The notes: generated by a model from the sequence alone, not told the origin. Counted from the first letter of the stretch, positions 5,105 to 62,280 are shown. The stretch: 64,000 nt of DNA from an uncultured Pseudomonadales bacterium (GCA_964357975.1 CAYHNG010000002.1:4560-68559), one strand, 5' to 3'. Made by a program: numbers and translations.

Positions 5105-5176
5105 GGCCGGATGGCGAAGTGGTAACGCTGAGGTCTGCAAAACCTCCATGCGAGGGTTCGATTCCCTCTCCGGCCT
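5105..5176 (+). tRNA. tRNA-Cys (GCA)
   Basis: Cloverleaf read by eye: acceptor GGCCGGA/TCCGGCC, anticodon stem GAGGT/ACCTC with loop CTGCAAA (GCA anticodon), TPsiC GGTTCGATTCC, U73 discriminator. No encoded CCA. Confidence 0.85.
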
Positions 5177-46201: not shown

Positions 46202-46506
46202 GTCGTAGTGCGAAGTGCTTGGTTATTGGTTGCTGGTTCGATGAGTCTAGTTAAGTATATCTTGTCTGGTGGAATTTGGGAAAAATATTCTATATATCTG
46301 CTGAGTTAAAATGTTAAGATGAGAGTGAGATGCAATTTTTGTTGTGCAATTACAGATGGAAAGTTTGGAACAAGTTTTTTTATCGGGAGTTCGATGATGA
46401 TCTGGACTACGATGCATCAATTGATCCTCGCAAACTACATAATAAAAAAAGAACAAAGAAGAAATTTGAGGGGGGGAAAAAGGGAGGAGTTAAACGAGGA
46501 GAAGAG

Positions 46507-48579
46507 ATGCTGGTGATGGACAGTCAAGAACCTGCTGTGGAAGAAGTAAATAAACCTAAGACAAGAAGTGTTGTGCGGTTGGAACAAATGGGGTTTTCAA
46601 GTAGTGAGAGTGGAAGCAGCTTGGAGCGAGCGTTGGCGTTCGACGTTCTTGCTAGAGTATTGGCCTTACCCGAAGGAACAGTTTTGAAGCTGGAAATTCC
46701 AGTAATAAAAGAAGGGGAGAGAGTTGTTGAAACACAGGATATTGAATTGAATTTAGAAGCTTTTCGAGAGGATAAAGATGGTGAAATTTTTAAAGCTCTA
46801 GCGCGCCATTTTTGGCAAGATCTAGCCGCGCACGGGATCGAACAGGCTTCAAAGGAAGTGGGTCAACAACCAAAAATGTTACAGTATTCCGATGCGGACG
46901 GAGAACTTTGCTTGAGGTTTATGAGGGAAGCTGGGATAAAAAGTCCAGGTATCGAGTATGTAAAAAAAGGTGATCATGCCACTGGAAAAGTCACGGTGGA
47001 CAGTGGAGGTAAAAACGGTATCTTTGTCGAACTAAATTGGGTTGGAAATCCTGGAGAAGAAAGATGGGTGGTAACGACAAGGGTTGATCACCACGGTGAA
47101 GGTGACGACGCTAGTCCAAGCGCCGCGGAGATTATTTACAAGGCGCTAGTAGGTTTGGGTCTGTTGGAGAGTAAGGTCAGCTACGAAAAAGCGGTTGAAT
47201 TTTTGAACGCTACAGATAGTGGAAATATTCCTGGAGTTTTGAGTAAAGAAGAGATGCCAAATTATTTTAAGAATAAGTTTGCAAAATCTTTGTATGGCTT
47301 GCAAGAATTCTTAACAGGAGAAGACATAATAACAGTATTTAAAATGAACGGAAAGCCTCTTGAAGAGTTATCTCCAAAACAGAAGGAGGCTATTAAGACA
47401 AAAGGTTTTACCAAAGCAAAAGAAGGTGAAACAAAAATTGACAAAAGAATTGCGCAAGTCCAAGAGAAGGTTAATAAATCAATTACGGCAATAGAGAAGT
47501 TGATTGCAGAAGGTTGTGTGCTGGAGACGGAAAAGTACGGACGCATTCTAGTGGATATTGGAGGAACGGTTCCTTTGACAGCTAGAGCGGCGAGACTAAT
47601 GGGATTTGATGGATATATAAATTGGAAGCCGGAAGATAAGTTTTTTATGGTAGTGGCTGATAATAAAATTGATTTTGATTTAAAAGATGGTATTAAAGTC
47701 AGAAATATGTGGATCAAGAAAGATGGTGCCGGGTTGGAGATTGGCTTGGGAGATATTGTGAAGGAAATGAAAGGTGAAAAGGGAAGGCTTGGAAAAGGCT
47801 TGGAAACTTATTTGGGTGTGACTGCTGCGACAGAAGAGACTAAAGCTAAGGAAAGACTGGTTTGGTATGACGAGATTTTGGAGGATTTGGATAAGATTAC
47901 ACTGTTGGACGATGAAATGGTCGTTAATGGAGAAAGGCTACGAGAGGGTATGTATTCTGGTCAAGAGGATGCATTAATAATAAAAATGGATGAAGTCCGC
48001 CGTGATACAGCCGCGAAACTCAGAAAGAAGGGGATTAAACTGGAAACACTTTCGATAGATCCGAACAGAGTAAAAGAATACAAACTTCGAAGAGACTTAC
48101 GGGCGGCGGTGGAGTATTTGAGAGAGGAAAATGTTTCACAGGAGGCGAGGGAAGTTTGGAAGACTAGGGCAGAAGCTGTTGTGTTTTTGAATGGAATTGG
48201 CATAGGGGATCGTGTTGGAGTGGATTACTTGCCGGATTCTGAGGATGCGAAGGAGGTGAAAGAGGCAGTGTCCGTGCCTGTGACTGAAAATAAAGAGGAG
48301 AGAAAGGCTAGGATTGAAAATATGTTAATCCAACTATCCGAGCTGGGTGATGCAGGTGGGGAAAGGGAGGCTATTTTAGCCTCGTTGGAAGCTGAAGGGA
48401 TAAAGGTAAGGAAGTTCTTGGCGGATATGGAGAAAGCCGCACCTGGTAAATCTAAGGACTTGATGCTGCAACTTAGAGCCGTAGTAGAGGTTTGGAGGAT
48501 GAGTGAAGTAAAAAAAGCCGAGTTTCCCGCCATGACGAAGATTGCTGGTGCCTACGCACGCTTGTTGGGTCTTGGGTGA
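46507..48579 (+). CDS. Large charged hypothetical protein (about 690 aa from the preferred start), T4SS-linked orphan
   Basis: Long ORF with high coding quality. The ATG at 46507 is preceded by GGAGGAG...GAGGAG. The track start at 46330 gives a Lys-rich, unlikely N-terminus. Confidence 0.5.
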   Translation: MLVMDSQEPAVEEVNKPKTRSVVRLEQMGFSSSESGSSLERALAFDVLARVLALPEGTVLKLEIPVIKEGERVVETQDIELNLEAFREDKDGEIFKALARHFWQDLAAHGIEQASKEVGQQPKMLQYSDADGELCLRFMREAGIKSPGIEYVKKGDHATGKVTVDSGGKNGIFVELNWVGNPGEERWVVTTRVDHHGEGDDASPSAAEIIYKALVGLGLLESKVSYEKAVEFLNATDSGNIPGVLSKEEMPNYFKNKFAKSLYGLQEFLTGEDIITVFKMNGKPLEELSPKQKEAIKTKGFTKAKEGETKIDKRIAQVQEKVNKSITAIEKLIAEGCVLETEKYGRILVDIGGTVPLTARAARLMGFDGYINWKPEDKFFMVVADNKIDFDLKDGIKVRNMWIKKDGAGLEIGLGDIVKEMKGEKGRLGKGLETYLGVTAATEETKAKERLVWYDEILEDLDKITLLDDEMVVNGERLREGMYSGQEDALIIKMDEVRRDTAAKLRKKGIKLETLSIDPNRVKEYKLRRDLRAAVEYLREENVSQEAREVWKTRAEAVVFLNGIGIGDRVGVDYLPDSEDAKEVKEAVSVPVTENKEERKARIENMLIQLSELGDAGGEREAILASLEAEGIKVRKFLADMEKAAPGKSKDLMLQLRAVVEVWRMSEVKKAEFPAMTKIAGAYARLLGLG

Positions 48580-48615: not shown

Positions 48616-50886
48616 ATGACTGAACACAATGAAGCCACGAACGAACATGAAGAGGAGAGAATTGCGGAGAGTTTGGCTGATCCGGCCGCACAGGCAGAGG
48701 CGACAAGGATAATAGGTCAGGTGAATGTGGTGCCGGAGGCTCGTAAGAAATCTTATATAGACAAAGTATTGGATATGCCAGCAGGTGAAAAGCGTGACGC
48801 GTTGTTGGCAGGATGGCTGGATAAACACGGGGAGGAGGCCGATGAAGGCCTGCAGGGGCGGGTGTTCGCGGCCATAGGGCAGAGAGAGGCGGCTCTTCCT
48901 CCAGTGATTGACTGGTCCAGAGCAGAAGAAAGTTTTGAAAAGTTAATAAGCCCCACTTCATACGGTGGTAACCCAGAACAAAAGAAAGCTGCGGCAGATA
49001 GATGGTTGGATTTATACGGTCGACATGAAAGTGTTACAGTTGAGATGCGCGAGCAGTTGGAGAAAATAATTAATCCAGAAACCGAATTTTCGGATGATCT
49101 AAAAGAATGGATTAGAAATTATTGTCTGGAAAGTGTTTTTGAAAGAGGTGAAAGAAACTATCGAACAATATTAGGTTCACTTGTAAATATGGGTGGCGCC
49201 CTTGATGCTGAACGTAATATTCCTTTAGATAAAATTAATCTTCTGAAACCGCAAATTCAAGAGCTAGTGGAAGCTTTGGGTTTGGATAATTTTATTAGTA
49301 TTCGAGGAGTTGTAAGTGAGTGGGACGGCCTGAAGAAACTGGAGGAAATTACCTCTTCAACATTGAAATCAGCTTTGTTTGTACCAGAATATACAGAACG
49401 TTGGGTTGAGGGTGACTATGATAAGGATGACAACCGAATCGGTGATCGGATGGTCACCTTGCCGGGTGAGAATGGAGTGGCAAAAAACATGCAAGAAGAG
49501 GTAAGTAAAGGTATCTTGGCCCTTAAAAACTTTTTTGACAACAATGAATATTGGGATTTTGTGGGTGTGTCAGCAGACAAAAGGACAAAACTCTATAAAC
49601 AATTAGGATTAAATAAATATGTCGGTGAGGTGGCGTTTGCAATGGGAATGTCAAATTTAATCTTTACCGAAACTAAAGGTACAAGTTTGGATCCGTTTTT
49701 GTTTATGGTTCACGGAGATACCAAAAGGAGAAAATCCAGAGAGGTTGCTGTGGACAGAGAGGTAACAGCAATGGCTTATGTGCAATTTCAAATGGCAAAC
49801 AAAGACAAAAGCCCTAGCCCGGATGAAATTGAGGTTTGGCTTTCCCAACACTTTCCTAGCCATCTGATTCCCACTGGACTCTCGGCGGGAGGAATGGCGG
49901 CATTGGAGAATGGAAACTGGTTGAAATGGAGGGTACAAGAGAACCTTTTTTCAGCATCTCAGAGAGCGATAGATATTACTTATGAAACAAATAAAGATTA
50001 TTGGATAGCCATTGCAAATGCAGGATTTGACGTTGGTGGGGTGATTGTAAAATGGACGGCGGATGAAGTTCAGTTAGAGTACGATAGAAAGAAAAGAAGA
50101 ACAGTAATTGGAGCCAAGGGGAGATTGACAGAGGATGAGGGAAAGATGAAGGGCCAAAAAGCGATTGAGAAACAAAAAGATAAGGAGTGGAAGGCATTAG
50201 TCAATGCTGTTTCCGAGTCGCCAGAAGTGCAGATAGCAACAGATACTGAATCAAGAATAGAAGAAATGAAAACGGCTTTGGATTTACTTGTAGCTTTGAA
50301 GGAGGCCTTAAGACCAGAATCGGATATAGATAAATTGGCCGCTCTAAAGTCCAAGAGTCTTATTCACTGGAAAACATCCATGAAAGCAGCTGGACGAGTC
50401 GATGTAAAAGATATGGTAAGCGAAGAATTTTCTTTTATTCCGGGACAAAAACAGAGTGTAGATGAATGGGTGTCAACAGCAATGTTAACTTCATGCCAAT
50501 CATGGTTGCATGCACATTCGATTGCAAACTTCAAGAACCCTAAGCCACTCGATATGAAGACACTGGCGGAGAAAATGGAACAAATATTAGCTACGGATGT
50601 ACAAACTCCAGACATACAGGCTTATATTTGGACCGGAAAAGATACTGAGAAAACAGAACCTCTGTTGGCAAACAAAAGAGCGTACATTGATTACGCTACA
50701 GATCTCTGGGAGGACTGTTTCGACGTGATCGATAAAATAACGAGGAATGTCACGCCAGATAAATATCCAAAATGGTGGCGTTCTGGTGTGAGTGCAGCAT
50801 CAGGGATAGCAGATCTGGCTGCTAAATCATCCCCATTCTATCCACTGTGGAATACTATAGCGAAAAGACTAAGAAACAGAGCATAG
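48616..50886 (+). CDS. Large acidic hypothetical protein (756 aa), T4SS-linked orphan
   Basis: Long ORF with no TM helices or recognisable motif. Co-directional with 46507-48579. Confidence 0.5.
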   Translation: MTEHNEATNEHEEERIAESLADPAAQAEATRIIGQVNVVPEARKKSYIDKVLDMPAGEKRDALLAGWLDKHGEEADEGLQGRVFAAIGQREAALPPVIDWSRAEESFEKLISPTSYGGNPEQKKAAADRWLDLYGRHESVTVEMREQLEKIINPETEFSDDLKEWIRNYCLESVFERGERNYRTILGSLVNMGGALDAERNIPLDKINLLKPQIQELVEALGLDNFISIRGVVSEWDGLKKLEEITSSTLKSALFVPEYTERWVEGDYDKDDNRIGDRMVTLPGENGVAKNMQEEVSKGILALKNFFDNNEYWDFVGVSADKRTKLYKQLGLNKYVGEVAFAMGMSNLIFTETKGTSLDPFLFMVHGDTKRRKSREVAVDREVTAMAYVQFQMANKDKSPSPDEIEVWLSQHFPSHLIPTGLSAGGMAALENGNWLKWRVQENLFSASQRAIDITYETNKDYWIAIANAGFDVGGVIVKWTADEVQLEYDRKKRRTVIGAKGRLTEDEGKMKGQKAIEKQKDKEWKALVNAVSESPEVQIATDTESRIEEMKTALDLLVALKEALRPESDIDKLAALKSKSLIHWKTSMKAAGRVDVKDMVSEEFSFIPGQKQSVDEWVSTAMLTSCQSWLHAHSIANFKNPKPLDMKTLAEKMEQILATDVQTPDIQAYIWTGKDTEKTEPLLANKRAYIDYATDLWEDCFDVIDKITRNVTPDKYPKWWRSGVSAASGIADLAAKSSPFYPLWNTIAKRLRNRA

Positions 50887-50892
50887 TTGTTT

Positions 50893-52731
50893 TTAGTTGC
50901 CGGAAACTGTCTTCTGGGCTTCTGGGATATTAATATTAGTTCCACCGATTACTGGTCTGGTTGAGGCGGAAGGTCCACCATATGCCCCACCAAGACTGTT
51001 TCTTAGACTACGAGGCAAGCCGGAGTATCCTGTTTTTGCCCATGATTCGTTAACATTAACTCCTGTTTTGAGGGCTTCGCCAATGGCGGCGCCGTAGGGG
51101 AATGGAGGTGTCTTGAGGGCTTTTTCGACCATTTCGCAGTACTTGCTGGACATCATTAGTAATCCAAAACCAATGGTAGCAAGCATAAGGCTACCAACTG
51201 AACCGGTCCACGTGCCGGTTGATACGTTTCCGGGAATGGTTAATGGAGGCGTCCAGATATTACTAAGGGTGGATAGCTGATTTACTCCAAGAAGATTTTC
51301 CAGCCCGGAGGTTATCCATCCAGTAAGTGGGCCTCCTGCGGCGGCTAAAGATAGTAGTGGCTGGCACATAAGTGCATATGAAAGAGTGAGAAAGAACATA
51401 GCCACCGGAAAGACGGCGAGGTTGCCGTAGATGCTTCGTAGCCAATCTCCAAAAGAAGTGGAGCCGGGAAACAAGTTACCAAGAAGTAGAATGGGGGCAA
51501 AAATAAGATTAATAATAACTCCAAAATAGGCCTGGAAAAGCTTCATGATTAGTTTGAAATAGGAAATGGCGACGGCAATCATAATAATTATCCCTATGAC
51601 GATCCCAAACCAATTAATCAAATAAACACCAACAAGGGCGGTGATTATTCCGAGAAAACCTCCGATGATTAAGTTGAATAAAACGAAAGGAGACACCATT
51701 ATAGCAACAAGCATGTTTACAAACCACGATCCAAAAGCTCCAAGCACGCCCTGACCACTGACCGTATTGATCATATCCTCTCCGACTCCTGATCCGAAAC
51801 CGCCCGAGTTGAGGATAGCTTCGTTACCTCCAATCCTCAGAATGTTGATGGCCATTGCGCCAGCGATTGTAGAGATATCTACCAAAAAGCCAACGATAGC
51901 ATAGGAGAAAGTAATCATGAGGAGGGTGGCGATGAGCTTGGGAATAGCGAGCTGAATGGTGGCGGCGGTTTTGGAGTCTATCTTGATTCGAAACATAATC
52001 ATTATCCCATAAAGAACGAAACCGATAGCAAAAAGCATGTAAGCAATGTTTCTAAAGGCACGCCAGAGAGGAAGAATCGGGGCGAGAGCGGAGAAACCAT
52101 AACCGGGTCCGGCCGCATAGGTATCGCTGATAATGTGGTGTTTTTGAAGATTAGAGGAAATATAAGTTAAGTAATCATATGTACCGGCAGGCCTAGAAGA
52201 TATAAGGCCGGTGGCGAATTTTCCCAACTTGCCGATTAGACCTCCCGGTGCTGTGGGGCTGTAAGCAAGGTCGCTGATTTTTGTATTAATGGTGACGGGT
52301 TTACTTTTTAGTTGCTCGAACATTTTTAATGAGTTCTTTATGGAATCTAGGAAATTATCATGTGGATTGGTAAACATCAAAGTACTCCACCATTCCATGC
52401 CTTGAAGGATGACAATATCAACAAAACCAACTCCATCACCACTCAGCGAATCGACACCGGGAGCACATTTGCCGGAGTACCAAGTTTCCAGATTCATAAG
52501 GTCTCCGGAACGTTTATCGCAGAATTCTTTGACGTAATCCTGTATGCCTTTTGATCCAGGTATACCAAAAAGATTCGGAGTCGCAGCCGCCGCGTTTGTG
52601 TAGGGAACTATGATAGCGGAAATAGTTATGAATACGGATAGAAATATGAGGCTGAGAGATTTTTGAAGAAGGGACATAGCTAGAAAAATTATACAGGAAA
52701 ATGACACACCTGGGTGGAGTGAGATTGCCAC
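50893..52731 (-). CDS. VirB6/TrbL-like polytopic membrane protein with N-terminal extracytoplasmic domain
   Basis: Signal peptide, roughly 200-aa soluble domain, then at least 7 TM helices rich in Gly/Ile. The location fits a T4SS channel subunit. Confidence 0.45.
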   Translation of the reverse strand: MAISLHPGVSFSCIIFLAMSLLQKSLSLIFLSVFITISAIIVPYTNAAAATPNLFGIPGSKGIQDYVKEFCDKRSGDLMNLETWYSGKCAPGVDSLSGDGVGFVDIVILQGMEWWSTLMFTNPHDNFLDSIKNSLKMFEQLKSKPVTINTKISDLAYSPTAPGGLIGKLGKFATGLISSRPAGTYDYLTYISSNLQKHHIISDTYAAGPGYGFSALAPILPLWRAFRNIAYMLFAIGFVLYGIMIMFRIKIDSKTAATIQLAIPKLIATLLMITFSYAIVGFLVDISTIAGAMAINILRIGGNEAILNSGGFGSGVGEDMINTVSGQGVLGAFGSWFVNMLVAIMVSPFVLFNLIIGGFLGIITALVGVYLINWFGIVIGIIIMIAVAISYFKLIMKLFQAYFGVIINLIFAPILLLGNLFPGSTSFGDWLRSIYGNLAVFPVAMFFLTLSYALMCQPLLSLAAAGGPLTGWITSGLENLLGVNQLSTLSNIWTPPLTIPGNVSTGTWTGSVGSLMLATIGFGLLMMSSKYCEMVEKALKTPPFPYGAAIGEALKTGVNVNESWAKTGYSGLPRSLRNSLGGAYGGPSASTRPVIGGTNINIPEAQKTVSGN

Positions 52732-52799: not shown

Positions 52800-53072
52800 T
52801 TATTTGCGGTAGATTTCGTCGTGAGTGCCGATATCGAAGAAATATGCTGAACCGTCAGGAAGTATCTTGTATAACATTCTGATGCTTAAATTTGCCGAAA
52901 CACTGTGAGTGTTTGTTAAATGACCTGATAGTTTGTGACCCCGTAAGGACGGATGTTTAGGATTGACGCTGAATATTTGGAGTTGCTTGAGAACTTTATT
53001 GGATAATTTGGAATCATTTCTTTTGATCCTTTTTAACCCAGCTTTGAACTTGGGAGAGAAGGAAATTTCCAT
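52800..53072 (-). CDS. RelE/ParE-superfamily type II toxin
   Basis: 90 aa with a RelE-like ...RGHKLSG...YFFDIGTHDEIYRK C-terminus. Start overlaps the antitoxin stop (ATGA). Confidence 0.6.
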   Translation of the reverse strand: MEISFSPKFKAGLKRIKRNDSKLSNKVLKQLQIFSVNPKHPSLRGHKLSGHLTNTHSVSANLSIRMLYKILPDGSAYFFDIGTHDEIYRK

Positions 53073-53326
53073 TATAATTTTGCAAAATATTCCTCGAGAT
53101 TGTCGACCCTCTCTGCCTTGTCGATCTCTAACATGGCCTGTTTGTAAGATTCTTCGGTTCTCTCGGATGCCCTGAAGGTGGGGTAGGAATCCGCCTGAGC
53201 TTTCTCAATAATCATATGCTTAACTACTTGAGTGACAGGAATGCCCAATTGACTGGATTGACCCAAGAGAAACTCGTAAAGCTGGCTAGTAAGACTTATT
53301 TTGACCTGTATTTGACCTTTAATCAT
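53072..53326 (-). CDS. RelB/DinJ-like antitoxin
   Basis: 84 aa, resembling DinJ (IKGQIQVKISLTSQLYEF...), upstream of and overlapping the toxin gene. Confidence 0.5.
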   Translation of the reverse strand: MIKGQIQVKISLTSQLYEFLLGQSSQLGIPVTQVVKHMIIEKAQADSYPTFRASERTEESYKQAMLEIDKAERVDNLEEYFAKL

Positions 53327-53332
53327 ACCTGA

Positions 53333-53361
53333 ATGATACCATATCTGGCTTTATTTGTCAA
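53333..53361 (-). promoter_or_regulatory. Promoter of the toxin-antitoxin operon (TTGACA-17-TATCAT), probably leaderless, with direct-repeat operator GGTATCATT/GGTATGATT
   Basis: Minus-strand sequence caaTTGACAaataaagccagatatggTATCATtcaggt, followed by ATG at 53326. Confidence 0.4.
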
Positions 53362-53375
53362 TTGGAAAGAAAGGC

Positions 53376-56300
53376 TTACTGTCCGCAGGAAAAGGTGTGA
53401 TACGGGTCGAGGACGTCTTCTTTGTAAGTATCCAAGGGGGGATATATCCCATTTTTCCCTGTTTCCGGACAATAACCGGCGTAGCTAATGTGACTTTGAA
53501 GAACTGTAGCGTCGGTCCATGCGCTACAAGAACCGGGAATGGAAGTATTGGTCATAGGGAGTTCAAAACAAGTATCGCTGGTAACTGTGGGTGGTAAATA
53601 GGCAGCCCCTCGTGAAAGTGCTTTTGCCGTGGCAGCGGCGGCATCAAGTAAGTTGCATGGAGAGATATTTTCCTTTGTTCTGGTTGGATCGATTTTTTGA
53701 ACGGCGGTCCAATTTGCAATCTCACCTTCTCCTTCCCAAAAGTAATAAGGTCTCCAACCAAATCCGGCTATGGATATATTACATGATCCAGAACTACTGC
53801 AGGCTTCGGCACTATACATAGCCGGGTCACACATTTGTCCGTCTGCAATAGGCATGGCTCCACCGCAGATGGCCCACTCTTTTGCGTTGGCATCGGTCCA
53901 TGTAAGGAATGAACGATTAAAGGCCCCTTCGTGAAGCATGACTGCTAAAACACTAGATGGAGGAACGCTAAAGGTACTTCCTACAGTTTCCAAAATATCT
54001 TGTAAAGTCTTGGGAATTTTTTCAGGAACCTGGCTTTCGTGAACGTAACGAGTGAACTGGGTAATTTTGTCGGTATTACACAACTTGCAGGAACCTCCTT
54101 TGAGAAACGAAAGATCCGTACTACAGACCACTGGCGGAGTGGGAGTAGGGAGGAGGTAACAGCGGGGGGAGTTTTGGAGTTCTTTGGGGACGGTCCAACA
54201 ATTTTGCAGGAGATGCATAGAGTCTTGGGCGAGGTTATTTACTCGATTAATGGGTTCGGCTGGATTGAGGATGTCGGAGTTGCCATTGGGTCCGGTGGAG
54301 GTGGCACCTGCGTCGACACCATCCACACGGTAGGAGACGAAGTGTCTGGCGATGGGAGCGTCGATACTGGCATTGACGGTTTTGTCCACGCCATCCGGGA
54401 GGATCATCTTGTAAAAGGAGTATTGATCGTTGTTGGCAACTGTTTCCTTTATGTCGGTATGTTTGGGATTGTTAAGAACATTTAAGGTTTTACCGTGTGA
54501 AATTCCTTCTACAGTCCATCTCATCCGACAACACTGTCCTGATTTTTGATCTTTATATCTACCCTCCCACTCATTGATGGGACAGACGCCGTACTCGATC
54601 CAACAGTGACCATTATCGTCACATTTTTCTTTTTCGGTTGGTGGATGACATTGGGGGTCGTAGTTCCAGGAAAGTTTGTCGCCCCGAATTGAAAGCACTT
54701 GGTGATGGTCGTCGGCCGGCCTTTGATTTGGATCTCCGCGATCGCCAGCAGCGGTTTTTGGTGCAATTAGATGATAACTGACAGGGAGGGGACAGGTGAT
54801 ATTGGCATAGCCGTCTTTTACTTTTTCATTTAAGTTGTCGATTTCATTTTCGGTATAGCCAACCTTCTTCAATTCGTCGTTGGTAAAGAGATCGGTGACT
54901 TTGTTCCATAGCCAGCCAAAGGGGTTGGTGACGATGGCAATAGTCTCTTCTTTCACTCGTTCCAAAAAGCCTTTCTGGGCAAGTTTTACTTCAGGCAGAG
55001 ACAAAAGAGTGTTTCCGATTCTGTAGTCCGAGATACCACTTGGGCTAGCATATTTATCAACGATCCATTGTGGTTGAAGAGCGGGGAACATGCCAAACTT
55101 GGGTGAAAGTAGCCCTTGGTAGATAGCCCCAACGTAGGGAACACTTTCTCTGGAAACGTTGGTAAGACCAGGTTTATTTGTACCATAACGACCCGCATTG
55201 TCCTCGTCAACCAGATATGGTGCCCAAGGATAATCCCCGTAATACGACTCTTCTTTTTCGTCTTTCTTTTTGACGATGTAACTTCTAGTGCCGTTGAAGT
55301 CTAATGGTACGAAAGCGGCGTATGGACCGTCGAGATCATTGCCAAAGGCACTGATGGCGGCCTCGTAAGCCAAGATTGCAGTGTCGGCAAGAAACCCCAA
55401 GTCCAAATCAAGAGCCAGCTCTCGGAGTTCCTGAAACATGGGCTTCAGAGATTCGGTGGCCTGGGCGTATTCGGGACAGACGGGATAGTCGACAAGACAG
55501 CCAACACGGATAAATGGCCAATGCCAAAAGAGAATTACTTGTTTACTTAGGGCATTGTAGAGTTTTTTAAAGTCGGTTTTCTTCTTGAGACCATTTCGAT
55601 CGACAAAATCGAAGTTAATGTTGTCGATTTGATCTTTGTTGGCCATGTTTAGGACAAATGATCGAAGATTGGCTTGGTTGGAGGCCGGGAGTAGCCGCCA
55701 GTAGGTCCGATAGGCCTCGCGAGTAGGATGACCATCGTTACCGGCATTGTTTTGTGGATCGTAGCTGTCTGAAAGATCCATGGGGCGACCAAAAAGTGAA
55801 GTATAGAGATAATTTTGAGCAATAAAATCAGCTGAGTAACTAGCTTCGGTGTCTGGGCTGGGACCGTAACTGCCGGTTTCGGCTTCGCGGACGTCGGTGT
55901 AGACGAGCATGGCGATGAGACATTCAGGATCTGTTCCTCCTGGTGCAGGTGTTCCGTCCGGCGCTGCCCCACCAACACCGCATTTAGTAAATGGCTGGTC
56001 TATACTTGGAGATAAAGAGTTCTTATATCTCTTGGCAGTGTAATGGGCAATAGGTTCGTAAATACAAGTTCGCTCATACTGCATAATATCTACTTGAGTA
56101 TTTTGAAAGTGATTCCAACAGCTACTGTTTGGTGGAAAAATACCGTTTTGAGACCCCAACTGTTTCCAGCAGTCTTCTGGAACATCTGGGTTGTCTCCGA
56201 TAGGAGTAATGGGGTCGTCAATGATGGATTGAGGTACGCAGTGGAGATCGAGATCCATGGGATACTTGATGCAAACTTCTCCCGCAAGACACATGGTGTT

Positions 56301-56465
56301 GCCACAGGTGACACCAACCGGCGGGCCGGGATTTGGTTCCGATGGAGATGAGGATGGTGAGGGTGATGGTGTAGGTGGTGGTGGAGGGGGGGCGGCTAGA
56401 ATGACCTTATCCAGAAAGAAATATAGAAAAATAAATATTGAGACAATAAAAACAAATTTCTTCAC
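53376..56465 (-). CDS. Large secreted Cys-rich protein (about 1030 aa): poly-Pro linker, Cys-rich domains, C-terminal lysozyme/SLT-like segment (tentative)
   Basis: Start preferred at the GTG at 56465, giving MKKFVFIVSIFIFLYFFLDKVILAA signal peptide then PPPPPPTPSPSPSSSP. The track TTG start at 56561 would overlap pilin gene 1 by 64 nt. C-terminal VLAVMLHEGAFNRSF...GGAMPIADGQ has a weak SLT-like look. Confidence 0.45.
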   Translation of the reverse strand: MKKFVFIVSIFIFLYFFLDKVILAAPPPPPPTPSPSPSSSPSEPNPGPPVGVTCGNTMCLAGEVCIKYPMDLDLHCVPQSIIDDPITPIGDNPDVPEDCWKQLGSQNGIFPPNSSCWNHFQNTQVDIMQYERTCIYEPIAHYTAKRYKNSLSPSIDQPFTKCGVGGAAPDGTPAPGGTDPECLIAMLVYTDVREAETGSYGPSPDTEASYSADFIAQNYLYTSLFGRPMDLSDSYDPQNNAGNDGHPTREAYRTYWRLLPASNQANLRSFVLNMANKDQIDNINFDFVDRNGLKKKTDFKKLYNALSKQVILFWHWPFIRVGCLVDYPVCPEYAQATESLKPMFQELRELALDLDLGFLADTAILAYEAAISAFGNDLDGPYAAFVPLDFNGTRSYIVKKKDEKEESYYGDYPWAPYLVDEDNAGRYGTNKPGLTNVSRESVPYVGAIYQGLLSPKFGMFPALQPQWIVDKYASPSGISDYRIGNTLLSLPEVKLAQKGFLERVKEETIAIVTNPFGWLWNKVTDLFTNDELKKVGYTENEIDNLNEKVKDGYANITCPLPVSYHLIAPKTAAGDRGDPNQRPADDHHQVLSIRGDKLSWNYDPQCHPPTEKEKCDDNGHCWIEYGVCPINEWEGRYKDQKSGQCCRMRWTVEGISHGKTLNVLNNPKHTDIKETVANNDQYSFYKMILPDGVDKTVNASIDAPIARHFVSYRVDGVDAGATSTGPNGNSDILNPAEPINRVNNLAQDSMHLLQNCWTVPKELQNSPRCYLLPTPTPPVVCSTDLSFLKGGSCKLCNTDKITQFTRYVHESQVPEKIPKTLQDILETVGSTFSVPPSSVLAVMLHEGAFNRSFLTWTDANAKEWAICGGAMPIADGQMCDPAMYSAEACSSSGSCNISIAGFGWRPYYFWEGEGEIANWTAVQKIDPTRTKENISPCNLLDAAAATAKALSRGAAYLPPTVTSDTCFELPMTNTSIPGSCSAWTDATVLQSHISYAGYCPETGKNGIYPPLDTYKEDVLDPYHTFSCGQ

Positions 56466-56497
56466 TGAAACTATTATACTTTGTATCGGGTGAGAGT

Positions 56498-56854
56498 TTA
56501 GGTGCCAAATTGGGTAACCTTGGCACCGGTAAAGTTCTCGATGAGAACTAAGGCCAGCCAAACCACCGCGAGGAGAATCAAGCCAATAACGGCCCAGGTA
56601 AACATGGAATAGGCACTGGCGACTGCTTTGGGTTCGGCGCCGGCGGAGATCAAACGAATTCCGGCCATAATGATTATTCCGACAGCAACGAGAGCCAATA
56701 GGGCAGGGATGGGTTGAAGAATGTTTTTAAAGAGACAGGTGATACCTTGTATCGAAGCGACATCGGTAGCATCGACTCCAGCAACATTTTGACCAACACA
56801 TTCTCCAGTCCAATTACTGGCGGCATAGACTTGGGAGACGAGTTGGAAGGACAT
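56498..56854 (-). CDS. VirB2/TrbC-like pilin paralog 1 (divergent, 2 Cys)
   Basis: Leader MSFQLVSQVYAA|S, two hydrophobic helices, loop ISAGAEPKAV. Confidence 0.5.
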   Translation of the reverse strand: MSFQLVSQVYAASNWTGECVGQNVAGVDATDVASIQGITCLFKNILQPIPALLALVAVGIIIMAGIRLISAGAEPKAVASAYSMFTWAVIGLILLAVVWLALVLIENFTGAKVTQFGT

Positions 56855-56903
56855 AAATATATTTTACATTGAATATTTCGGATTGTATATTTTTTTCTTG
56901 GAT

Positions 56904-56997
56904 GGTTCGAAGTGCGCAAAATATCGTACTCGACCTCCGTCCCTCGAGTACGAGTGCGGATCCGCTCCGTGCGAAATTTTGCTTGCCCTTCTGCACC
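56904..56997. repeat. Family-C direct repeat, copy C1 (about 95 bp, nested palindromes)
   Basis: GGTTCGAAGTGCGCAAAATATCGTACTCGACCTCCGTCCCTCGAGTACGAGTGCGGATCCGCTCCGTGCGAAATTTTGCTTGCCCTTCTGCACC, about 93% identical to C2. Contains GTACTCGA...TCGAGTAC and GCAAAAT...ATTTTGC stems. Confidence 0.75.
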
Positions 56998-57027
56998 ATT
57001 TGGTAGTCATAACAAAAACCGCCTGAC

Positions 57028-57086
57028 GGTGGAGTTTTTGTATGAGATTGCTTCAGCTCGAATACGAGATTCGCAATGACGAAGTG
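57028..57086. repeat. Family-A-like repeat, copy A10, with adjacent weak terminator hairpin (3' of pilin gene 2)
   Basis: CCGCCTGACGGTGGAGTTTTTG then GAGATTGCTTCAGCTCGAATACGAGATTCGCAATGACGAAGTG. Confidence 0.5.
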
Positions 57087-57087
57087 C

Positions 57088-57429
57088 TTAGTAAGGTTTG
57101 GGGATGTTGATATTTCCCTCGAAGACGTCGACACCGAAGAAGTAGGCGATGAGTTTCATGAGAGCCCAAGAGGCAGCGACGATAGCGAGACCAACGACGG
57201 CGGCGGTGATACGATTTCTGGCTTGTTCTGTTTTACCTTTATCTCCACCGGAGGTAAGCCATTCAATACCTCCCATGACTAGAAAGGCAAAGGTAAGAAT
57301 ACCGGCTACGATGAAGGCGAGAGAAATGACTCTACTAATAAGAACACCAATGTCGGTGATCTTCATTCCGGTTGGTTGGGGAACTCCAATGGTTCCGGCG
57401 GCGGCATAAGCTTGAGAAATTAGGGACAT
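57088..57429 (-). CDS. VirB2/TrbC-like pilin paralog 2
   Basis: Leader MSLISQAYAAA|G, TM1, loop LTSGGDKGKTEQ, TM2. Confidence 0.55.
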   Translation of the reverse strand: MSLISQAYAAAGTIGVPQPTGMKITDIGVLISRVISLAFIVAGILTFAFLVMGGIEWLTSGGDKGKTEQARNRITAAVVGLAIVAASWALMKLIAYFFGVDVFEGNINIPKPY

Positions 57430-57496
57430 ATTTTTTGGTTTTTTAATAATTATTTATTCTATTACTAATTTAGTATTATACCCGTTATTGAGTTTG

Positions 57497-57856
57497 TCAA
57501 TTGCCGAGAGGATTTTCGGTACACAGAGCATCCAAATTAATTCCGAAAAACTCAAGCACAATCATATAGACCGCATAACTGGAGGCAACGATGGTGAGGC
57601 CAATAAGGGCGGCCGATATCATCTTTTGGGAGGATTCGATCTTACTTTTGTCTCCACCGGAAGTGAGCCACTGGACTCCACCCATGACGAGGTAGACGAA
57701 GAAGGCGACTCCAGAAATAATGAAGGCAGCACTGACTAGATTACTGACGAGATGGCCGATACAGGTATAACCAAAGAAATTATTTTTAGTGGCCATTTCT
57801 CCGATGGGAAGAGTAATATCAGCAGCCAATACCTTAGGAATTATTTTTGGGATCAT
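57497..57856 (-). CDS. VirB2/TrbC-like pilin paralog 3
   Basis: Leader MIPKIIPKVLAA|D, loop LTSGGDKSKIE, 2 Cys. Confidence 0.55.
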   Translation of the reverse strand: MIPKIIPKVLAADITLPIGEMATKNNFFGYTCIGHLVSNLVSAAFIISGVAFFVYLVMGGVQWLTSGGDKSKIESSQKMISAALIGLTIVASSYAVYMIVLEFFGINLDALCTENPLGN

Positions 57857-58203
57857 AAGGCGCTTGGAAATACCGGTTTAAGAATATTAATTTTGAAGAC
57901 TTGTTGGATAAAGTAGGTGACCGCATAAGAGCCGACCAGTATTCCAATGCCGATGACAGAGCTGGTGATTTTTTTTTGAGCATCATCAATTTTGGCCTTG
58001 TCACCTCCGGAGGTAAGATATTCTATACCTCCCCAGACAAGATAAATAATGAAGGCGACTCCTCCAACGGTGATGACTGTCTGCCAAAGAGTGGCAATAT
58101 AAAAGGCAAGACCGCCTCCTGGGTCCTGAGGTATTTTGGGCGACAGTGCCTTATTGACAATTTCGTTGGCGGCAAAAGCAGTAGGTATTATTTGAAAGGC
58201 CAT
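57853..58203 (-). CDS. VirB2/TrbC-like pilin paralog 4
   Basis: Leader MAFQIIPTAFAA|N, loop LTSGGDKAKID. ATGA overlap with paralog 3. Confidence 0.55.
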   Translation of the reverse strand: MAFQIIPTAFAANEIVNKALSPKIPQDPGGGLAFYIATLWQTVITVGGVAFIIYLVWGGIEYLTSGGDKAKIDDAQKKITSSVIGIGILVGSYAVTYFIQQVFKINILKPVFPSAL

Positions 58204-58208
58204 TTTGT

Positions 58209-58577
58209 TTAGAGTTTTAGTGCATCAAATGGATTAAGAATGTCGAGACCGAGAACGGCTCCGACGATGCCAATAATAAAGAAGGAGGCGACGATAGCGA
58301 TAAGGCCAATAGCCGCTTGGGTCATTGAGGTTTGAGCTTCCGAGACCTTTGCCTTGTCTCCACCAGCTGTAATCCATTTTAGACCACCCATGGTGAAATA
58401 GATGACAAAGGCCAAACTGCCGACAACGGTAATGGTGGTGATTAAATTAGAAAGAAATGTTCCCAAACCACTTTGGACACCTCCACTGATGCCTGTTTGA
58501 AAAGGGCCAATTCCTCCAACTTCACTGCCTAGTGGGATATCGGCGGCGGCAAGGGCTGAGGAAATAAATGTCATCAT
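58209..58577 (-). CDS. VirB2/TrbC-like pilin paralog 5
   Basis: Leader MMTFISSALAAA|D, loop ITAGGDKAKVSE. Confidence 0.55.
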   Translation of the reverse strand: MMTFISSALAAADIPLGSEVGGIGPFQTGISGGVQSGLGTFLSNLITTITVVGSLAFVIYFTMGGLKWITAGGDKAKVSEAQTSMTQAAIGLIAIVASFFIIGIVGAVLGLDILNPFDALKL

Positions 58578-58580
58578 AAT

Positions 58581-58946
58581 TTAGATAGATTTTAATTTAG
58601 GAGCCAAGATTGCTCCAAAGTCTCCAAAGAGGACCTTGCTGACGATGGCAATAATTAGGAAACTAGCGGCAATAATGACTAGCCCCACAAGACTCATGGT
58701 GATTTTATTTTGAGCTTCAGTTAGTTTACCTTTGTCTCCACCGGAGGCAATATAGGCAAGTCCACCAGTGAGGAGTTGCCAGAGAGCGAAGACTCCGGCA
58801 ATAACTACAATGAAGCGAACTAGGGCAGAGATGATATCTGTGGTCTGAGTGGTTTCCTTTGGGATGCCTGCGGGAAGGTCGATGGTACCTATTACATTCG
58901 CGGCTAGGGCTGACTTGGCGAATAATGTGTTTAGTATATTGATCAT
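58581..58946 (-). CDS. VirB2/TrbC-like pilin paralog 6
   Basis: Leader MINILNTLFAKSALAA|N, loop IASGGDKGKLTE. Confidence 0.55.
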   Translation of the reverse strand: MINILNTLFAKSALAANVIGTIDLPAGIPKETTQTTDIISALVRFIVVIAGVFALWQLLTGGLAYIASGGDKGKLTEAQNKITMSLVGLVIIAASFLIIAIVSKVLFGDFGAILAPKLKSI

Positions 58947-58949
58947 AAA

Positions 58950-59273
58950 TTAAAAGAATTTAAAGCCAATAATTGCCCCCATAACTCGGGTGATTAGGAA
59001 AGCGAGAACAATGAGGATCAGACCAAGTATTCCATAGTTTAGCATGTTCTGAGCTTGTTCGGTTTTGCCTTTGTCACCACTTGCAGTGATATAGTTGAAA
59101 CCAGCCAGGATAATGACGATAAAGGCCATGACGCCGGAAATTATTAGCACATTGGAGATTAGAGGGTTAATAAGGTTGGCCAATGTGGCCCCACTACCGC
59201 CGACATTCAAGGCTTTGCCTGGAGCATAGAGATTTTCCAACGATTCTGCCGCAAGGACAGTTTTGATAACCAT
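58950..59273 (-). CDS. VirB2/TrbC-like pilin paralog 7
   Basis: Leader MVIKTVLAA|E, loop ITASGDKGKTEQ. Confidence 0.55.
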   Translation of the reverse strand: MVIKTVLAAESLENLYAPGKALNVGGSGATLANLINPLISNVLIISGVMAFIVIILAGFNYITASGDKGKTEQAQNMLNYGILGLILIVLAFLITRVMGAIIGFKFF

Positions 59274-59302: not shown

Positions 59303-60415
59303 ATGGAAACAAACAAGCTTGGGCGGTGGGCAAAAGAAAAATTAATCGAACTGGCATCCGAAACAGATGCGAGACTGGAAAAATATTGGGATAAGGAGAT
59401 AAAGAAGGACTTTGGTTTTAACAAAACGCAAAAAGAATTGGTGAGAAAAATGCTTTTGCATGCCAGAGAACACAACCTCAGATCGGCCAAAAGAGCAAGG
59501 GCGGGATTCGTAATTTATGGATATCAGCTGGGCAAAGAACCTGATCACTTAAGGAAGCAAGAACTCAAGACAGAAAAAGAAAAAGTGTGGAGGGCGGCGG
59601 AAGGGATAGAGTTGATTCACACGGCTCTTTTAATGCACGATGATTTTATGGATGGGGATAGGGTAAGGAGAGGAGGTCCGACGACTCAGGAATTTTTTGG
59701 TAAGGTAGACACACATTATGGAGATACGATGGCCATAAATGTCGGTGATGCAATTCTGTGTATGGGGTTTGACAGACTATTGGAGTGTAGCTCCGAGGGA
59801 GAAAAGACCAGACAGGTTATGAAACAGGTGTTCAACGGAATAACTCATACAGCCTTTGGGCAGGCGTATGATCTGAGTTTGCCAAAATTGGGAGAGATGA
59901 CGGAAGAAAAGGTGATGAGTTTGCACAGAGCAAAAACAGCTATTTATACTTACGAGAACCCATTATTGATTGGTGGAATTCTGGCTGGATTAACAAAAGA
60001 GGTTTTGGAAATCTTGCGAGATTATGCCACCGATGGAGGAATTGCGTTCCAGCTGCAAGACGACATTTTAGGTGTTTATGGGAACGAGGAAAAAACCGGA
60101 AAATCAATTAACTCGGATTTATTGCAGGGCAAGGTAACCCTTTTGGTAGTTAAAGTGATGGAAACGGGGACAAGGCAACAAAAAGAAAACTTGTTGAGAA
60201 TATGGGGAAAAAAGCAGGCGGAGACAAAAGATATCGATGCGGCGAAAGAAGCAATCAGAGATAGTGGGGCATATATGTATTCGGTAAAGGTGGCGAGAGA
60301 GTTGGCCGAGAAATCGGCTCGGACAACAAACAGATTGCGGGGGAAAGGATTAAACGATGAAGCAATTAACTATTTGGAAGGGATTGCGAGGTATATGGTG
60401 GAGAGAGAGGTTTAG
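59303..60415 (+). CDS. trans-Isoprenyl diphosphate synthase (polyprenyl synthetase family)
   Basis: FARM LMHDDFMDGDRVRRG and second Asp-rich region FQLQDDILGVYG. Confidence 0.8.
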   Translation: METNKLGRWAKEKLIELASETDARLEKYWDKEIKKDFGFNKTQKELVRKMLLHAREHNLRSAKRARAGFVIYGYQLGKEPDHLRKQELKTEKEKVWRAAEGIELIHTALLMHDDFMDGDRVRRGGPTTQEFFGKVDTHYGDTMAINVGDAILCMGFDRLLECSSEGEKTRQVMKQVFNGITHTAFGQAYDLSLPKLGEMTEEKVMSLHRAKTAIYTYENPLLIGGILAGLTKEVLEILRDYATDGGIAFQLQDDILGVYGNEEKTGKSINSDLLQGKVTLLVVKVMETGTRQQKENLLRIWGKKQAETKDIDAAKEAIRDSGAYMYSVKVARELAEKSARTTNRLRGKGLNDEAINYLEGIARYMVEREV

Positions 60416-60784: not shown

Positions 60785-61495
60785 TTATTTCGACTTTGGG
60801 GTGGAATCCCCGCCGAAGCGGCGATCTCTTTGGGTGAAGTCGTCAATAGCTTTCATGAATTGGTCGGGAGTGAAATCGGGGAATAAGGTAGGAGTGAAGT
60901 AAAGTTCCGAGTAGACACTTTGCCAGGGTAGGTAACCCGAGGTACGGCGTTCTCCACCGGTACGGATAACTAGGTCGGGGTCGGGCATACCGGCGGTGTC
61001 CAGGTAAGATGAAAAAATTTCTTCATTTATATTGTTTGCGGGAATCTGGTCGTTGATGATTTTTTTGATTGCACGAATGATTTCGTCCCGACCACCATAA
61101 TTAAGAGCAAAGGAGACAGTAATTTTATTGTTTTTGGAGGACTTAGAGATCATTTCCATTGATTTTTTGGCAATATCTTCAGGGAAACGGCTCATGTCAC
61201 CTAATATTTGTAGCTTTGCTCCTCGCTTAATAAATCTGAGAGCAAGGGCTCCAAAGGCAATTCGAAATATATCTAAAATCCCCCTGACTTCTTTTTCGTC
61301 TCTTTTCCAATTTTCGGTAGAGAAGGCCCAAAAGGTCACATAGGGGATACCCAGATCGACACATTTTTCGATCAGAGGTTCAATGGTGTGGTTGGCGGCG
61401 TATTCGTGACCTTTGACAGGTTCCAAACCTTGTTTTTTTGCCCAACGACGGTTGCCATCCATCATGATCGCAATATGTTTTAGTGGAAGTTCCAT
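60785..61495 (-). CDS. uppS: Undecaprenyl diphosphate synthase (cis-prenyltransferase)
   Basis: MMDGNRRWA and YVTFWAFSTENWKR motifs. Confidence 0.85.
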   Translation of the reverse strand: MELPLKHIAIMMDGNRRWAKKQGLEPVKGHEYAANHTIEPLIEKCVDLGIPYVTFWAFSTENWKRDEKEVRGILDIFRIAFGALALRFIKRGAKLQILGDMSRFPEDIAKKSMEMISKSSKNNKITVSFALNYGGRDEIIRAIKKIINDQIPANNINEEIFSSYLDTAGMPDPDLVIRTGGERRTSGYLPWQSVYSELYFTPTLFPDFTPDQFMKAIDDFTQRDRRFGGDSTPKSK

Positions 61496-61521: not shown

Positions 61522-61860
61522 CTAAACAATATTGCCCAGTCCTAAAAAGTTGGTAATGACACGTACAACTAGATAAGCGGTAAATACCATAATGAGACCG
61601 ATAAAGCTGTTTAATAGTCTTGTTGTAGCACTAGCTACCCTTTTCGGGTCCCCTGAGCTCATCATGTATTCCCAGCCGGCCATGACGAGATTAGCAAAAA
61701 AGAGAAGACCAACAATGACGAAAACAAGGGTGAGAAGGTCTTTTGATAATACACTACCAAGATCGGTGAATTTGTTGATTCCAACGACCTGGTTGATACT
61801 GTTTTCTAACCCCGTAATGTCTACTTCGTCAGCTGCCAGAACCAGATTGATTAATGACAT
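61522..61860 (-). CDS. VirB2/TrbC-like pilin paralog 8
   Basis: Leader MSLINLVLAA|DE, loop MMSSGDPKRVAS. Confidence 0.5.
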   Translation of the reverse strand: MSLINLVLAADEVDITGLENSINQVVGINKFTDLGSVLSKDLLTLVFVIVGLLFFANLVMAGWEYMMSSGDPKRVASATTRLLNSFIGLIMVFTAYLVVRVITNFLGLGNIV

Positions 61861-61863
61861 AGT

Positions 61864-62280
61864 TTATTTTAGACCGGGAAGGCTAAGAATGTTAACTCCA
61901 ATAAGTCTTAATAAAAAGACGGAAAGGATAATAAAAATTAGACCGGAAATGGCGGAAGTGATAATCTCTTGACCCTCTTTCAGCTTATCGGGAATGCCGG
62001 CTGAGGTAGTGATGATAAAGACTCCAAAGAGCATGAGAATAAGAGCTAGTCCACCCCCAAGACCAACGGCGATCTTGAAGACTGAAGTAAAAAATGACGC
62101 CCCACCGGTTTCGACTGAAGTTGATATGCAACCAAGAGCAGTATTCACTTCGTCAGTACCACATCCTGTGCTTGGACCAACAAAAGCAGCGTGTGTGGAA
62201 TGTGGGGATAGAACAATCAGTGAAACAAGAAATATGAATATGAAGTATACGAGGCTTCTCATGTAGGGTAATTTTAACAT
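61864..62280 (-). CDS. VirB2/TrbC-like pilin paralog 9 (divergent: classical signal peptide, Cys pair)
   Basis: Signal peptide ...LSPHSTHA|AF, GCGTDEVNTALGC, two hydrophobic helices with loop TTSAGIPDKLKEGQE. Confidence 0.45.
   Translation of the reverse strand: MLKLPYMRSLVYFIFIFLVSLIVLSPHSTHAAFVGPSTGCGTDEVNTALGCISTSVETGGASFFTSVFKIAVGLGGGLALILMLFGVFIITTSAGIPDKLKEGQEIITSAISGLIFIILSVFLLRLIGVNILSLPGLK

Follow-up and report, generated by a model that had tools for sequence, protein, structure and literature searches.

We analysed a 64,000-nt stretch of DNA (CAYHNG010000002.1:4560–68559, assembly GCA_964357975.1; hereafter the window), deposited under the name of an uncultured Pseudomonadales bacterium, from a genome that belongs to Candidatus Collierbacteria (Microgenomatia, Patescibacteria/Candidate Phyla Radiation, CPR). 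The window carries a predicted chromosomal type IV secretion system (T4SS) of Patescibacteria, of the Gram-positive (MPF-FATA-like) type, and within it a gene for a large cysteine-rich secreted protein, which is the subject of this work. Seven VirB2-like pilin genes are followed by the secreted-protein gene, by a gene for a VirB6-like candidate and, further along, by genes for PrgI, a TrsD/TraC-like protein and VirB4, an order kept in every locus examined, even that of the 26%-identical homologue P0040. Nine PF18895 VirB2-like pilins are encoded in the window (56498–59273 and 61522–62280), with dnaA and dnaN near the T4SS genes; the same pilin array was present in L001, L003 and L021, and a VirB6-like protein of ~580–610 amino acids (aa) in every locus examined. 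The link to the T4SS/pilin locus, drawn in a preliminary description made from the sequence of the window, is thus borne out by conserved co-location with virB4, prgI and VirB2-like pilins, the gene always lying between the pilin array and the VirB6-like gene.

The open reading frame (ORF) as listed spans 53376..56561 on the minus strand (1061 aa, TTG start) and shares 64 nt with the upstream pilin gene (56498..56854). A GTG at 56465, 32 codons inside this frame, yields a product of 1029 aa that opens with MKKFVFIVSIFIFLYFFLDKVILAA, followed by PPPPPPTPSPSPSSSPSEPNPGPP. Three independent lines place the start at this GTG. Every full-length homologue in the alignment opens at the same (M/V)KK and hydrophobic stretch; the GTG, in the context GTGAAGAAA, recurs in 13 distinct orthologous loci; and in the ortholog L005 (94% identical; Ca. 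Collierbacteria UBA12020) the TTG is a CTG followed by an in-frame TGA that closes the upstream frame, so that the 5′ extension cannot be translated there and the TTG start is ruled out. A perfect TATAAT hexamer lies 7–8 nt upstream of the GTG in 11 of the 13 loci, including the 24%-identical L019. No Shine–Dalgarno motifs were found in the genome or region examined, and -10-like hexamers also stand 6–8 nt before the start of other first genes, namely pilin 1 (before 56854), pilin 7 (before 59273), the polyprenyl synthase (before 59303) and the antitoxin (before 53326). Given this shared layout, the gene is probably expressed from a leaderless mRNA, which would in turn also require the GTG start, and the pattern suggests that leaderless mRNAs are widespread in the genome. 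A promoter/terminator consensus scan stayed at background level and left the TATAAT before the GTG unflagged, because no -35 partner is present.

In a hydrophobicity scan the N-terminal segment is the sole hydrophobic stretch of the protein, and from its n/h/c-region anatomy, conserved in homologues, we infer a Sec signal peptide. Cleavage would probably fall between VILA and AP, a site favoured because Pro at +1 disfavours cleavage between LAA and PP. With no Cys close to the cleavage site, a lipoprotein signal is absent, and so is a sortase or other C-terminal anchor, the protein ending in ...HTFSCGQ. All 32 cysteines lie in the mature part and none in the signal peptide. Cysteine counts are even in nearly all family members, mostly 18 or 20 in the core and 8, 10, 12 or 14 in the C-terminal domain, as would be expected if all were paired in disulfides; odd totals trace to a small number of cores that have 17, 19 or 21 cysteines. 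The preliminary description had already reported the TTG frame with its 64-nt overlap, moved the start to the GTG, and pointed to a signal peptide, a Pro/Ser/Thr-rich linker and many paired cysteines, all of which agree with our results; its length of 1030 aa included the stop codon.

A word-indexed search returned 40 proteins of 836–1115 aa, none with a name or a Pfam domain, and a genome scan returned 17 loci, all from Collierbacteria or mislabelled bins. An exhaustive profile search extended this to 291 representatives, comprising distant core relatives (700–930 aa) and many proteins sharing a single C-terminal domain type. By these searches the family appears confined to Collierbacteria. 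The whole protein, its core and all four types of C-terminal cassette (see below) gave no usable match in Pfam, NCBIfam, PHROGs or the PDB by phmmer and profile searches; the whole protein had no match in Pfam at E ≤ 0.1, likewise none in NCBIfam or PHROGs, and Pfam scans of ten distant core relatives were also negative. The 720-aa core contains 16 cysteines that are near-invariant in the family alignment and is modelled with confidence (AlphaFold2 model of residues 44–770: pLDDT 81.8, pTM 0.82). The best Foldseek match of this predicted structure against the PDB had an E-value of 1.4 over ~60 columns, with ribosomal-protein noise only, leaving it without a PDB neighbour by this method.

The most invariant stretch of the family, NRxNNxAQDxxHLLQNCWxVPxxLQNSPRC, lies at the very end of the core, its invariant columns being R741, N744, Q747, D748, H751, Q754, C756, W757, P760, Q764, S766 and C769. 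This junction motif holds Asp748, His751 and Cys756 just before the cassette boundary, and could be either a structural disulfide loop (C756–C769) or an autoprocessing site that frees the cassette. One homologue, P0039, has an N-terminal extension of ~200 aa (residues 1–200) with 24 extra cysteines in repeated CxxxxC-type motifs, and also bears the only type-D cassette (GPMQI-containing and the most SLT-like).

Exchangeable C-terminal cassettes

Immediately after Cys769 the family splits into four types that have no BLAST similarity to one another. Type A is found in the window, L003, L005, L012, L018, P0007, P0014 and P0018; type C forms the majority (n = 29), followed by type B (n = 6) and type D (n = 1). 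Close relatives of the window carry different types. The type-B locus L004 is 77% identical to the window in the core, 81% in the pilin and 83% in the VirB6-like protein, and the type-C locus L006 81%, 81% and 76%, respectively. When both were aligned to the window with blastn, homology stopped sharply 20–23 nt past the Cys769 codon, at the same place for both, inside the shared LPTPTP linker (window ~54136–54139), and resumed ~27 nt into the VirB6-like ORF (window ~52703). The exchanged unit therefore consists of the C-terminal domain and everything up to the VirB6-like gene.

The modules are also reused in other architectures. The type-A module occurs alone in the 453-aa P0045, which has a different N-terminus, is shared from exactly Cys769 on (49% identity, E = 1e-70) and is encoded next to secE/nusG, outside any T4SS locus. 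The type-C module is found in more than 100 other representatives, some with GH5 or NAGPA domains and some as pilin fusions. A conserved N-terminal region, a fixed junction, non-homologous C-termini among close relatives and C-terminal modules reused elsewhere are the hallmarks of polymorphic toxins, and all were observed here. The preliminary description, partly supported overall, had noticed neither the cassette nature of the C-terminus nor its four types, and it likewise passed over the lack of recognisable relatives of the 720-aa core and the separate Amidase_2 hydrolase encoded next to virB4 (see below). In L005 the locus itself is a mosaic, with the large gene 94% identical to that of the window, the VirB6-like gene only 61% and pilin 1 only 78%, a pattern that indicates recombination beyond the C-terminal cassette.

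We then compared the type-A cassette with known domains. An alignment of nine type-A sequences was run with hhalign against the SLT domains of E. coli Slt70, MltD, EmtA and MltC (MltF was left out, having been missed by the ES-motif filter), and gave a probability of 80%, an E-value of 1.4e-5 and a score of 40.5 over 124 columns. The alignment paired Glu846 with the catalytic Glu and matched the CNLLD helix to the ‘LLDP..N’ helix of SLT domains. In controls, the reversed alignment scored 15.3 and the best of 40 column shuffles 28.1 (0/40 reached 40.5), and pilin alignments gave E-values of 0.3–0.75. Types C, B and D aligned with SLT in register on the same Glu (E = 0.019, 0.048 and 0.0085, respectively), and type A aligned with a deep type-C alignment at a probability of 50% (E = 1.6e-4). 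Comparisons between the small cassette alignments were weak (A versus C at 5% probability; nothing for A versus B or C versus B), the usable signal coming only from the deeper type-C alignment and from real SLT sequences.

E846 is invariant in 9/9 type-A sequences, in the context VLAVMLH-E-G-A-F-N, and directly follows model helix 67–76, at the C-terminal end of that helix, as a catalytic glutamate of this class would (SLT motif helix-E-S-x-F-(N/D)-P); the Ser that follows it in SLT domains is replaced by Gly. The AlphaFold2 model of residues 770–1029 is helical and of moderate quality (pLDDT 63, pTM 0.74), with the helix ending at Glu846 as its best-predicted part. The top four Foldseek matches of this model in the PDB were all Tse3, a muramidase of the type VI secretion system (T6SS; E = 0.26–0.56), followed by GH73 autolysins, MltF, Slt, SltB2 and a GH23 chitinase, and in BFVD, where phage proteins of these kinds led the matches, at least 20 of ~33 named matches were lytic transglycosylases, SLT, goose egg-white lysozyme (GEWL)-like or GH19 proteins, or tail lysins. 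The fold evidence is thus convergent but weak match by match. Together with the alignment it leads us to place the type-A domain, with good confidence, in the lysozyme-like superfamily as a divergent member whose catalytic acid is likely Glu846, although it lies outside Pfam SLT as defined. The lysozyme/SLT-like segment with an HEG motif that the preliminary description had picked out near the C-terminus agrees with this assignment.

Type-C cassettes come with a partner. In 16/16 type-C loci a gene for an N-terminally membrane-anchored protein of 172–191 aa lies directly downstream, its start falling -4 to +12 nt past the type-C stop codon in the 11 loci measured. Apart from the anchor, the protein consists of a conserved 110-aa domain predicted to be extracytoplasmic, and it has 39 homologues, all in the same lineages and none with a Pfam match. 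The gene was absent from all six type-A or type-B loci (0/6) and from the whole 64-kb window. The partner family was always directly after a type-C cassette and never elsewhere, for example in L001 (12939–13505), L006 (4771–5343), L021 (8856–9374) and L023 (8001–8519), all outside the window. By analogy with effector–immunity pairs, it is a candidate immunity or partner protein. For type A, no homologue of an immunity-like gene is shared between the neighbours of P0045 and the window or any other locus.

In Microgenomates outside Collierbacteria, the same locus slot is occupied by a 960-aa protein that joins an unrelated N-region and a type-C domain (38% identity) to a VirB2-like pilin domain, and is also trailed by a small anchored protein. 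The fused pilin domain matches a hidden Markov model built from window and L023 pilins (E ~1e-15). Its best match by blastp is the pilin pil9 of the window (40–46% identity, E = 1e-15 to 1e-19; the search covered the C-termini of the L023 960-aa protein, P0097 and P0136). At least nine independent representatives have the same fusion (P0094, P0096, P0097, P0102, P0103, P0131, P0132, P0136 and P0138). Giant pilins of this kind, encoded at 5117–7999 in L023 and 5099–7999 in L024, consist of a signal peptide, a ~600-aa region, the type-C lysozyme-like domain and a C-terminal pilin. Conserved synteny and the pilin fusion in sister lineages tie the cassette slot to the T4SS pilus.

Neighbouring genes and feature coordinates

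Between the secreted-protein gene and the VirB6-like gene, exactly at the cassette site, the window carries a putative toxin–antitoxin (TA) pair. Its Pfam matches are below threshold, the antitoxin is unannotated, and a strong sigma70-like promoter-like site of its own lies at 53361–53333 (11/12 matches). The order pilins, secreted-protein gene, TA pair and VirB6-like gene is as given in the preliminary description, which had counted the pair as a member of the series; because it is absent from the orthologous loci L003, L005 and L012, we regard it as a window-specific insertion outside the system. Other loci carry different inserts at this site, such as an AbiEii-like gene in L001.

Directly after virB4 lies a gene whose 913-aa product ends in an Amidase_2 (N-acetylmuramoyl-L-alanine amidase) domain, preceded by ~770 unannotated residues; this protein is likely the VirB1-like wall hydrolase of the T4SS. 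Two divergent genes between the VirB6-like gene and prgI, at 46330–48579 (+) and 48616–50886 (+), encode proteins of 749 and 756 aa with no Pfam match above threshold; the 756-aa protein has 54–71% identical counterparts in L001, L004 and L008, and both are probably further components of the T4SS locus. A polyprenyl synthase gene (59303–60415, +) and a gene for the undecaprenyl-diphosphate synthase UppS (60785–61495, -) lie between the two pilin clusters. Their position, conserved in L001, L003 and the distant L021, suggests some connection of lipid-carrier synthesis with the pilin genes. Elsewhere in the window, the gene at 12082–15561 (-) encodes a protein of 1159 aa that has domains resembling those of T4SS coupling proteins (TrwB_AAD_bind, TraG-D_C) and, at its C-terminus, a NUDIX domain; in L023 and L024, too, NUDIX genes lie on the flanks of the pilin arrays.

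Table 1 Features of the secreted-protein gene and its surroundings, in window coordinates.
Feature	Position	Strand	Description
Revised gene	53376..56465	-	Secreted T4SS-locus protein, apparently Collierbacteria-specific; 1029 codons plus stop (53376-53378)
Signal peptide (predicted)	56391..56465	-	Residues 1-25: MKK, 15-residue hydrophobic core, VILAA
Pro/Ser/Thr-rich linker	56319..56390	-	Residues 26-49; composition differs among homologues
Conserved core	54159..56318	-	Residues 50-769; 20 Cys; mixed alpha/beta (model)
Junction motif NRVNNLAQDSMHLLQNCWTVPKELQNSPRC	54159..54248	-	Residues 740-769; directly before the variable cassette
C-terminal cassette, type A	53379..54158	-	Residues 770-1029; 12 Cys; putative divergent lysozyme/SLT-like domain
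H845-E846-G847	53925..53933	-	E846 is the predicted catalytic glutamate
Replaceable segment	52703..54139	-	C-terminal cassette and all up to the VirB6-like gene (blastn against L004, L006)
TATAAT hexamer, perfect	56473..56478	-	7 nt 5′ of the GTG; probable -10 box of a leaderless transcript
Rejected 5′ extension (TTG start)	56466..56561	-	3′ end of the pilin gene and 32-nt spacer; non-coding for the secreted protein
VirB2-like T4SS pilin array, seven genes	56498..59273	-	PF18895 matches; conserved upstream neighbour
Pilin pil9	61864..62280	-	Ortholog of the pilin domain fused to the type-C cassette in sister lineages
Putative toxin-antitoxin pair	52800..53326	-	Toxin 52800-53072 (weak YafQ/ParE-like); antitoxin 53072-53326
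Polytopic VirB6-like candidate	50893..52731	-	At least 7 hydrophobic segments; predicted 180-aa extracytoplasmic loop; no Pfam match; conserved downstream neighbour
PrgI/VirB3-like	45197-46201		T4SS component
TrsD/TraC-like	44544-45194		T4SS component
VirB4	42610-44514		T4SS component
Amidase_2 protein, 913 aa	39866-42607	-	Directly after virB4

Proposed function and alternatives

We lean towards the view that the protein is a Sec-exported, T4SS/pilus-associated polymorphic muralytic factor. This view builds on what was observed directly: the start site, the anatomy of the export signal, the family with its synteny, the exchange of cassettes at sharp breakpoints, and the alignment with SLT domains together with the fold neighbours. 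After export through Sec the protein would fold with about 16 disulfides and act outside the cell together with the VirB2-type pilus. The conserved core would serve as a carrier or docking part, ending in the junction motif and a short PTPTP linker, beyond which sits the exchangeable C-terminal ‘warhead’. In the window this would be the type-A cassette, with Glu846 as a single general acid cleaving the MurNAc–GlcNAc strand of peptidoglycan, most likely in the wall of a host or target cell where the two cells touch, and less likely in the wall of the producer. The membrane-anchored protein downstream of type-C cassettes would then be the immunity protein or partner of its cassette.

Several points weigh against this interpretation. 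Peptidoglycan cleavage by the cassette is a prediction from alignment and modelling, and the carrier or docking role of the 720-aa core is one that we infer. None of the Foldseek matches reaches significance by itself (E ≥ 0.26), and the model of the C-terminal domain is of moderate quality only (pLDDT 63). Pfam SLT (PF01464) and the other profile libraries match none of the cassette types even at E ≤ 10, so that the profile search for an SLT-like fold in the C-terminal part, which the preliminary description had suggested, came back negative. Besides the replacement of Ser by Gly after the Glu, type A does not conserve the GLMQ and AYNAG motifs: the corresponding positions read NISIAGF / NNIVPFF and PMTNTS / PLNxGS, and only the LLD(P) helix (CNLLD) is kept. 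The type-A cassette of the window has no immunity-like neighbour, and the effector/immunity logic therefore rests on type C, in which the small protein might alternatively assist in assembly. The pilin fusion contains a type-C domain and a different N-region, and thus bears only indirectly on the protein of the window. Finally, if the host of Collierbacteria were diderm, an enzyme acting on it externally would need help to get to its wall.

A bolder form of the proposal, which we regard as a tentative possibility, is that the VirB2-type pilus of Microgenomatia is ‘armed’ with a pilus-borne lysozyme-like warhead that opens the host wall for T4SS-dependent uptake or delivery. The warhead would be covalent in sister lineages, as an N-terminal extension of a pil9-type pilin, and non-covalent in Collierbacteria, docked through the 720-aa core; warheads, with immunity proteins in the case of type C, would be exchanged as cassettes that track host wall chemistry. 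If true, polymorphic effectors would have a new mode of delivery, by Sec export and pilus docking, and there would be a first clue to the mechanism by which CPR epibionts breach their hosts.

A rather unlikely explanation, and the strongest of the rivals to a polymorphic muralytic factor, is a VirB1-like housekeeping hydrolase that opens the producer's own peptidoglycan for assembly of the T4SS channel or VirB2 pilus. The C-terminal domain is SLT-like and of the same predicted fold class as VirB1, the gene lies inside the T4SS/pilin locus, apparently co-oriented with the pilins, and VirB1 homologues are rare in Patescibacteria, where other glycosidases may substitute (PMC12102498). However, the Amidase_2 protein right after virB4 already fits this role, matching the hydrolases found downstream of virB4 in Southlakia (PMC12102498). 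A constant self substrate would also leave unexplained why four unrelated cassettes are swapped between relatives 77–94% identical, why one of them has its own membrane-anchored partner gene, and why a conserved extra domain of 720 aa is present. The cassette exchange, the anchored partner specific to type C and the slot already taken by the Amidase_2 protein are the reasons for which we favour a host or target wall as the substrate.

Improbable in our view is a second rival, that the protein is a pilus-tip or surface adhesin analogous to VirB5, in which the core binds the pilus and the C-termini are catalytically dead lysozyme-like lectins for host wall glycans. The gene does occupy the virB5 slot of classical operons, between the VirB2 genes and the VirB6-like gene, its product is Sec-exported like VirB5, sister lineages encode at this position a protein covalently joined to a pilin, variable C-termini would suit determinants of host range, and no adhesins have been found for Patescibacteria T4SSs (PMC12102498). 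Against it, neither Pfam nor Foldseek detects similarity to VirB5/TraC/TrwJ, structures of which are in the PDB; the Glu at the catalytic position, invariant in type A and kept in B, C and D, argues for catalysis; and the immunity-like partner that accompanies type C points to an activity that does harm. The VirB5-like or tip-adhesin role put forward in the preliminary description is thus favoured by gene position alone, for a protein about five times larger than VirB5. Very improbable is a third rival, a protein associated with the cell envelope or S-layer in general whose gene happens to lie beside the T4SS genes without a functional link to them. A promoter-like -10 box of its own may allow separate transcription, and the core has no recognisable T4SS domain, but the gene stays next to the pilin array and the VirB6-like gene even at 24–26% identity, and a same-slot type-C cassette is fused to a T4SS pilin in sister lineages.

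As a polymorphic muralytic factor, this conserved and exported family would give one large CPR lineage a concrete candidate for the host-facing component that has been missing. The idea is testable by heterologous expression without cultivation, through E846, the warheads, the candidate immunity partner and the pilin fusion.

Comparison with known systems

Among wall hydrolases, the type-A domain resembles SLT/GH23 lytic transglycosylases, goose-type lysozymes and VirB1 in its ~124-column alignment, in the Glu aligned with the catalytic Glu and in its helical model, and, as with VirB1, the gene is encoded inside a T4SS locus. It differs from SLT/GH23 in having ‘EG’ instead of ‘ES’, in lacking GLMQ, AYNAG and any profile match, and in being a domain with 12 cysteines, exchangeable and set behind an unrelated core of 720 aa.

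The nearest functional parallels are interbacterial effectors. Tse3, a T6SS muramidase effector of Pseudomonas paired with the immunity protein Tsi3, provided the top structural matches, statistically weak as these are. Peptidoglycan hydrolase effectors with lipoprotein immunity (X-Tfe/X-Tfi) are also known from the X-T4SS of Xanthomonas. With both systems the Collierbacteria family would share a wall-degrading domain aimed at a neighbouring bacterium and, for type C, an envelope-anchored protein encoded directly downstream. Unlike Tse3 and X-Tfe, the protein appears to leave the cell by N-terminal Sec export instead of a T6SS or a C-terminal XVIPCD signal read by VirD4, and the type-A cassette of the window has no immunity gene.

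Polymorphic toxins (CdiA-CT, Rhs, LXG) combine a conserved delivery region, a demarcation motif, a variable C-terminal domain and an immunity gene. The family follows this plan in that its core ends in an invariant motif, non-homologous C-termini replace one another at a constant breakpoint, the downstream gene included, and modules are reused. It departs from the plan in that it has no homology to any known pre-toxin domain, the four cassettes are apparently variations on a lysozyme-like theme and not diverse nucleases or deaminases, and an immunity-like gene accompanies only one cassette type.

VirB5 proteins are helical and ~220 aa long, and the gene order with a virB5 slot is known from Agrobacterium virB. 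The VirB5/TraC pilus-tip proteins share with the present protein the Sec signal and a gene position between pilin and VirB6-like genes, and differ from it in that no VirB5 profile matches in Pfam and the core has no PDB match by Foldseek, so that the three-helix-bundle fold of VirB5 was not detected either.

Chromosomal T4SSs with VirB2-like arrays have been described in Patescibacteria, and the locus agrees with them in its PrgI, TrsD/TraC-like protein, VirB4, hydrolase and nine pilins and in its position near dnaA (PMC10633639, PMC12102498). In the one Patescibacterium tested genetically, a T4SS with a pilin array was essential for epibiotic growth (Wang et al. 2023, PMC10633639). Surveys of these systems contain no adhesin or component corresponding to the secreted protein described here (PMC10633639, PMC12102498): Quinonero-Coronel et al. 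(2025, PMC12102498) found no adhesin, noted that VirB1 homologues are rare and that other glycosidases may take their role, and no adhesin, effector or substrate has been identified for Patescibacteria T4SSs (PMC12102498, PMC12857230). From the wall hydrolases, interbacterial effectors and polymorphic toxins compared, the Collierbacteria family is set apart by a Sec signal, a core without a detectable relative or PDB match, an apparently single enzymatic theme across its cassettes, and the fusion of a cassette to a pilin in sister lineages.

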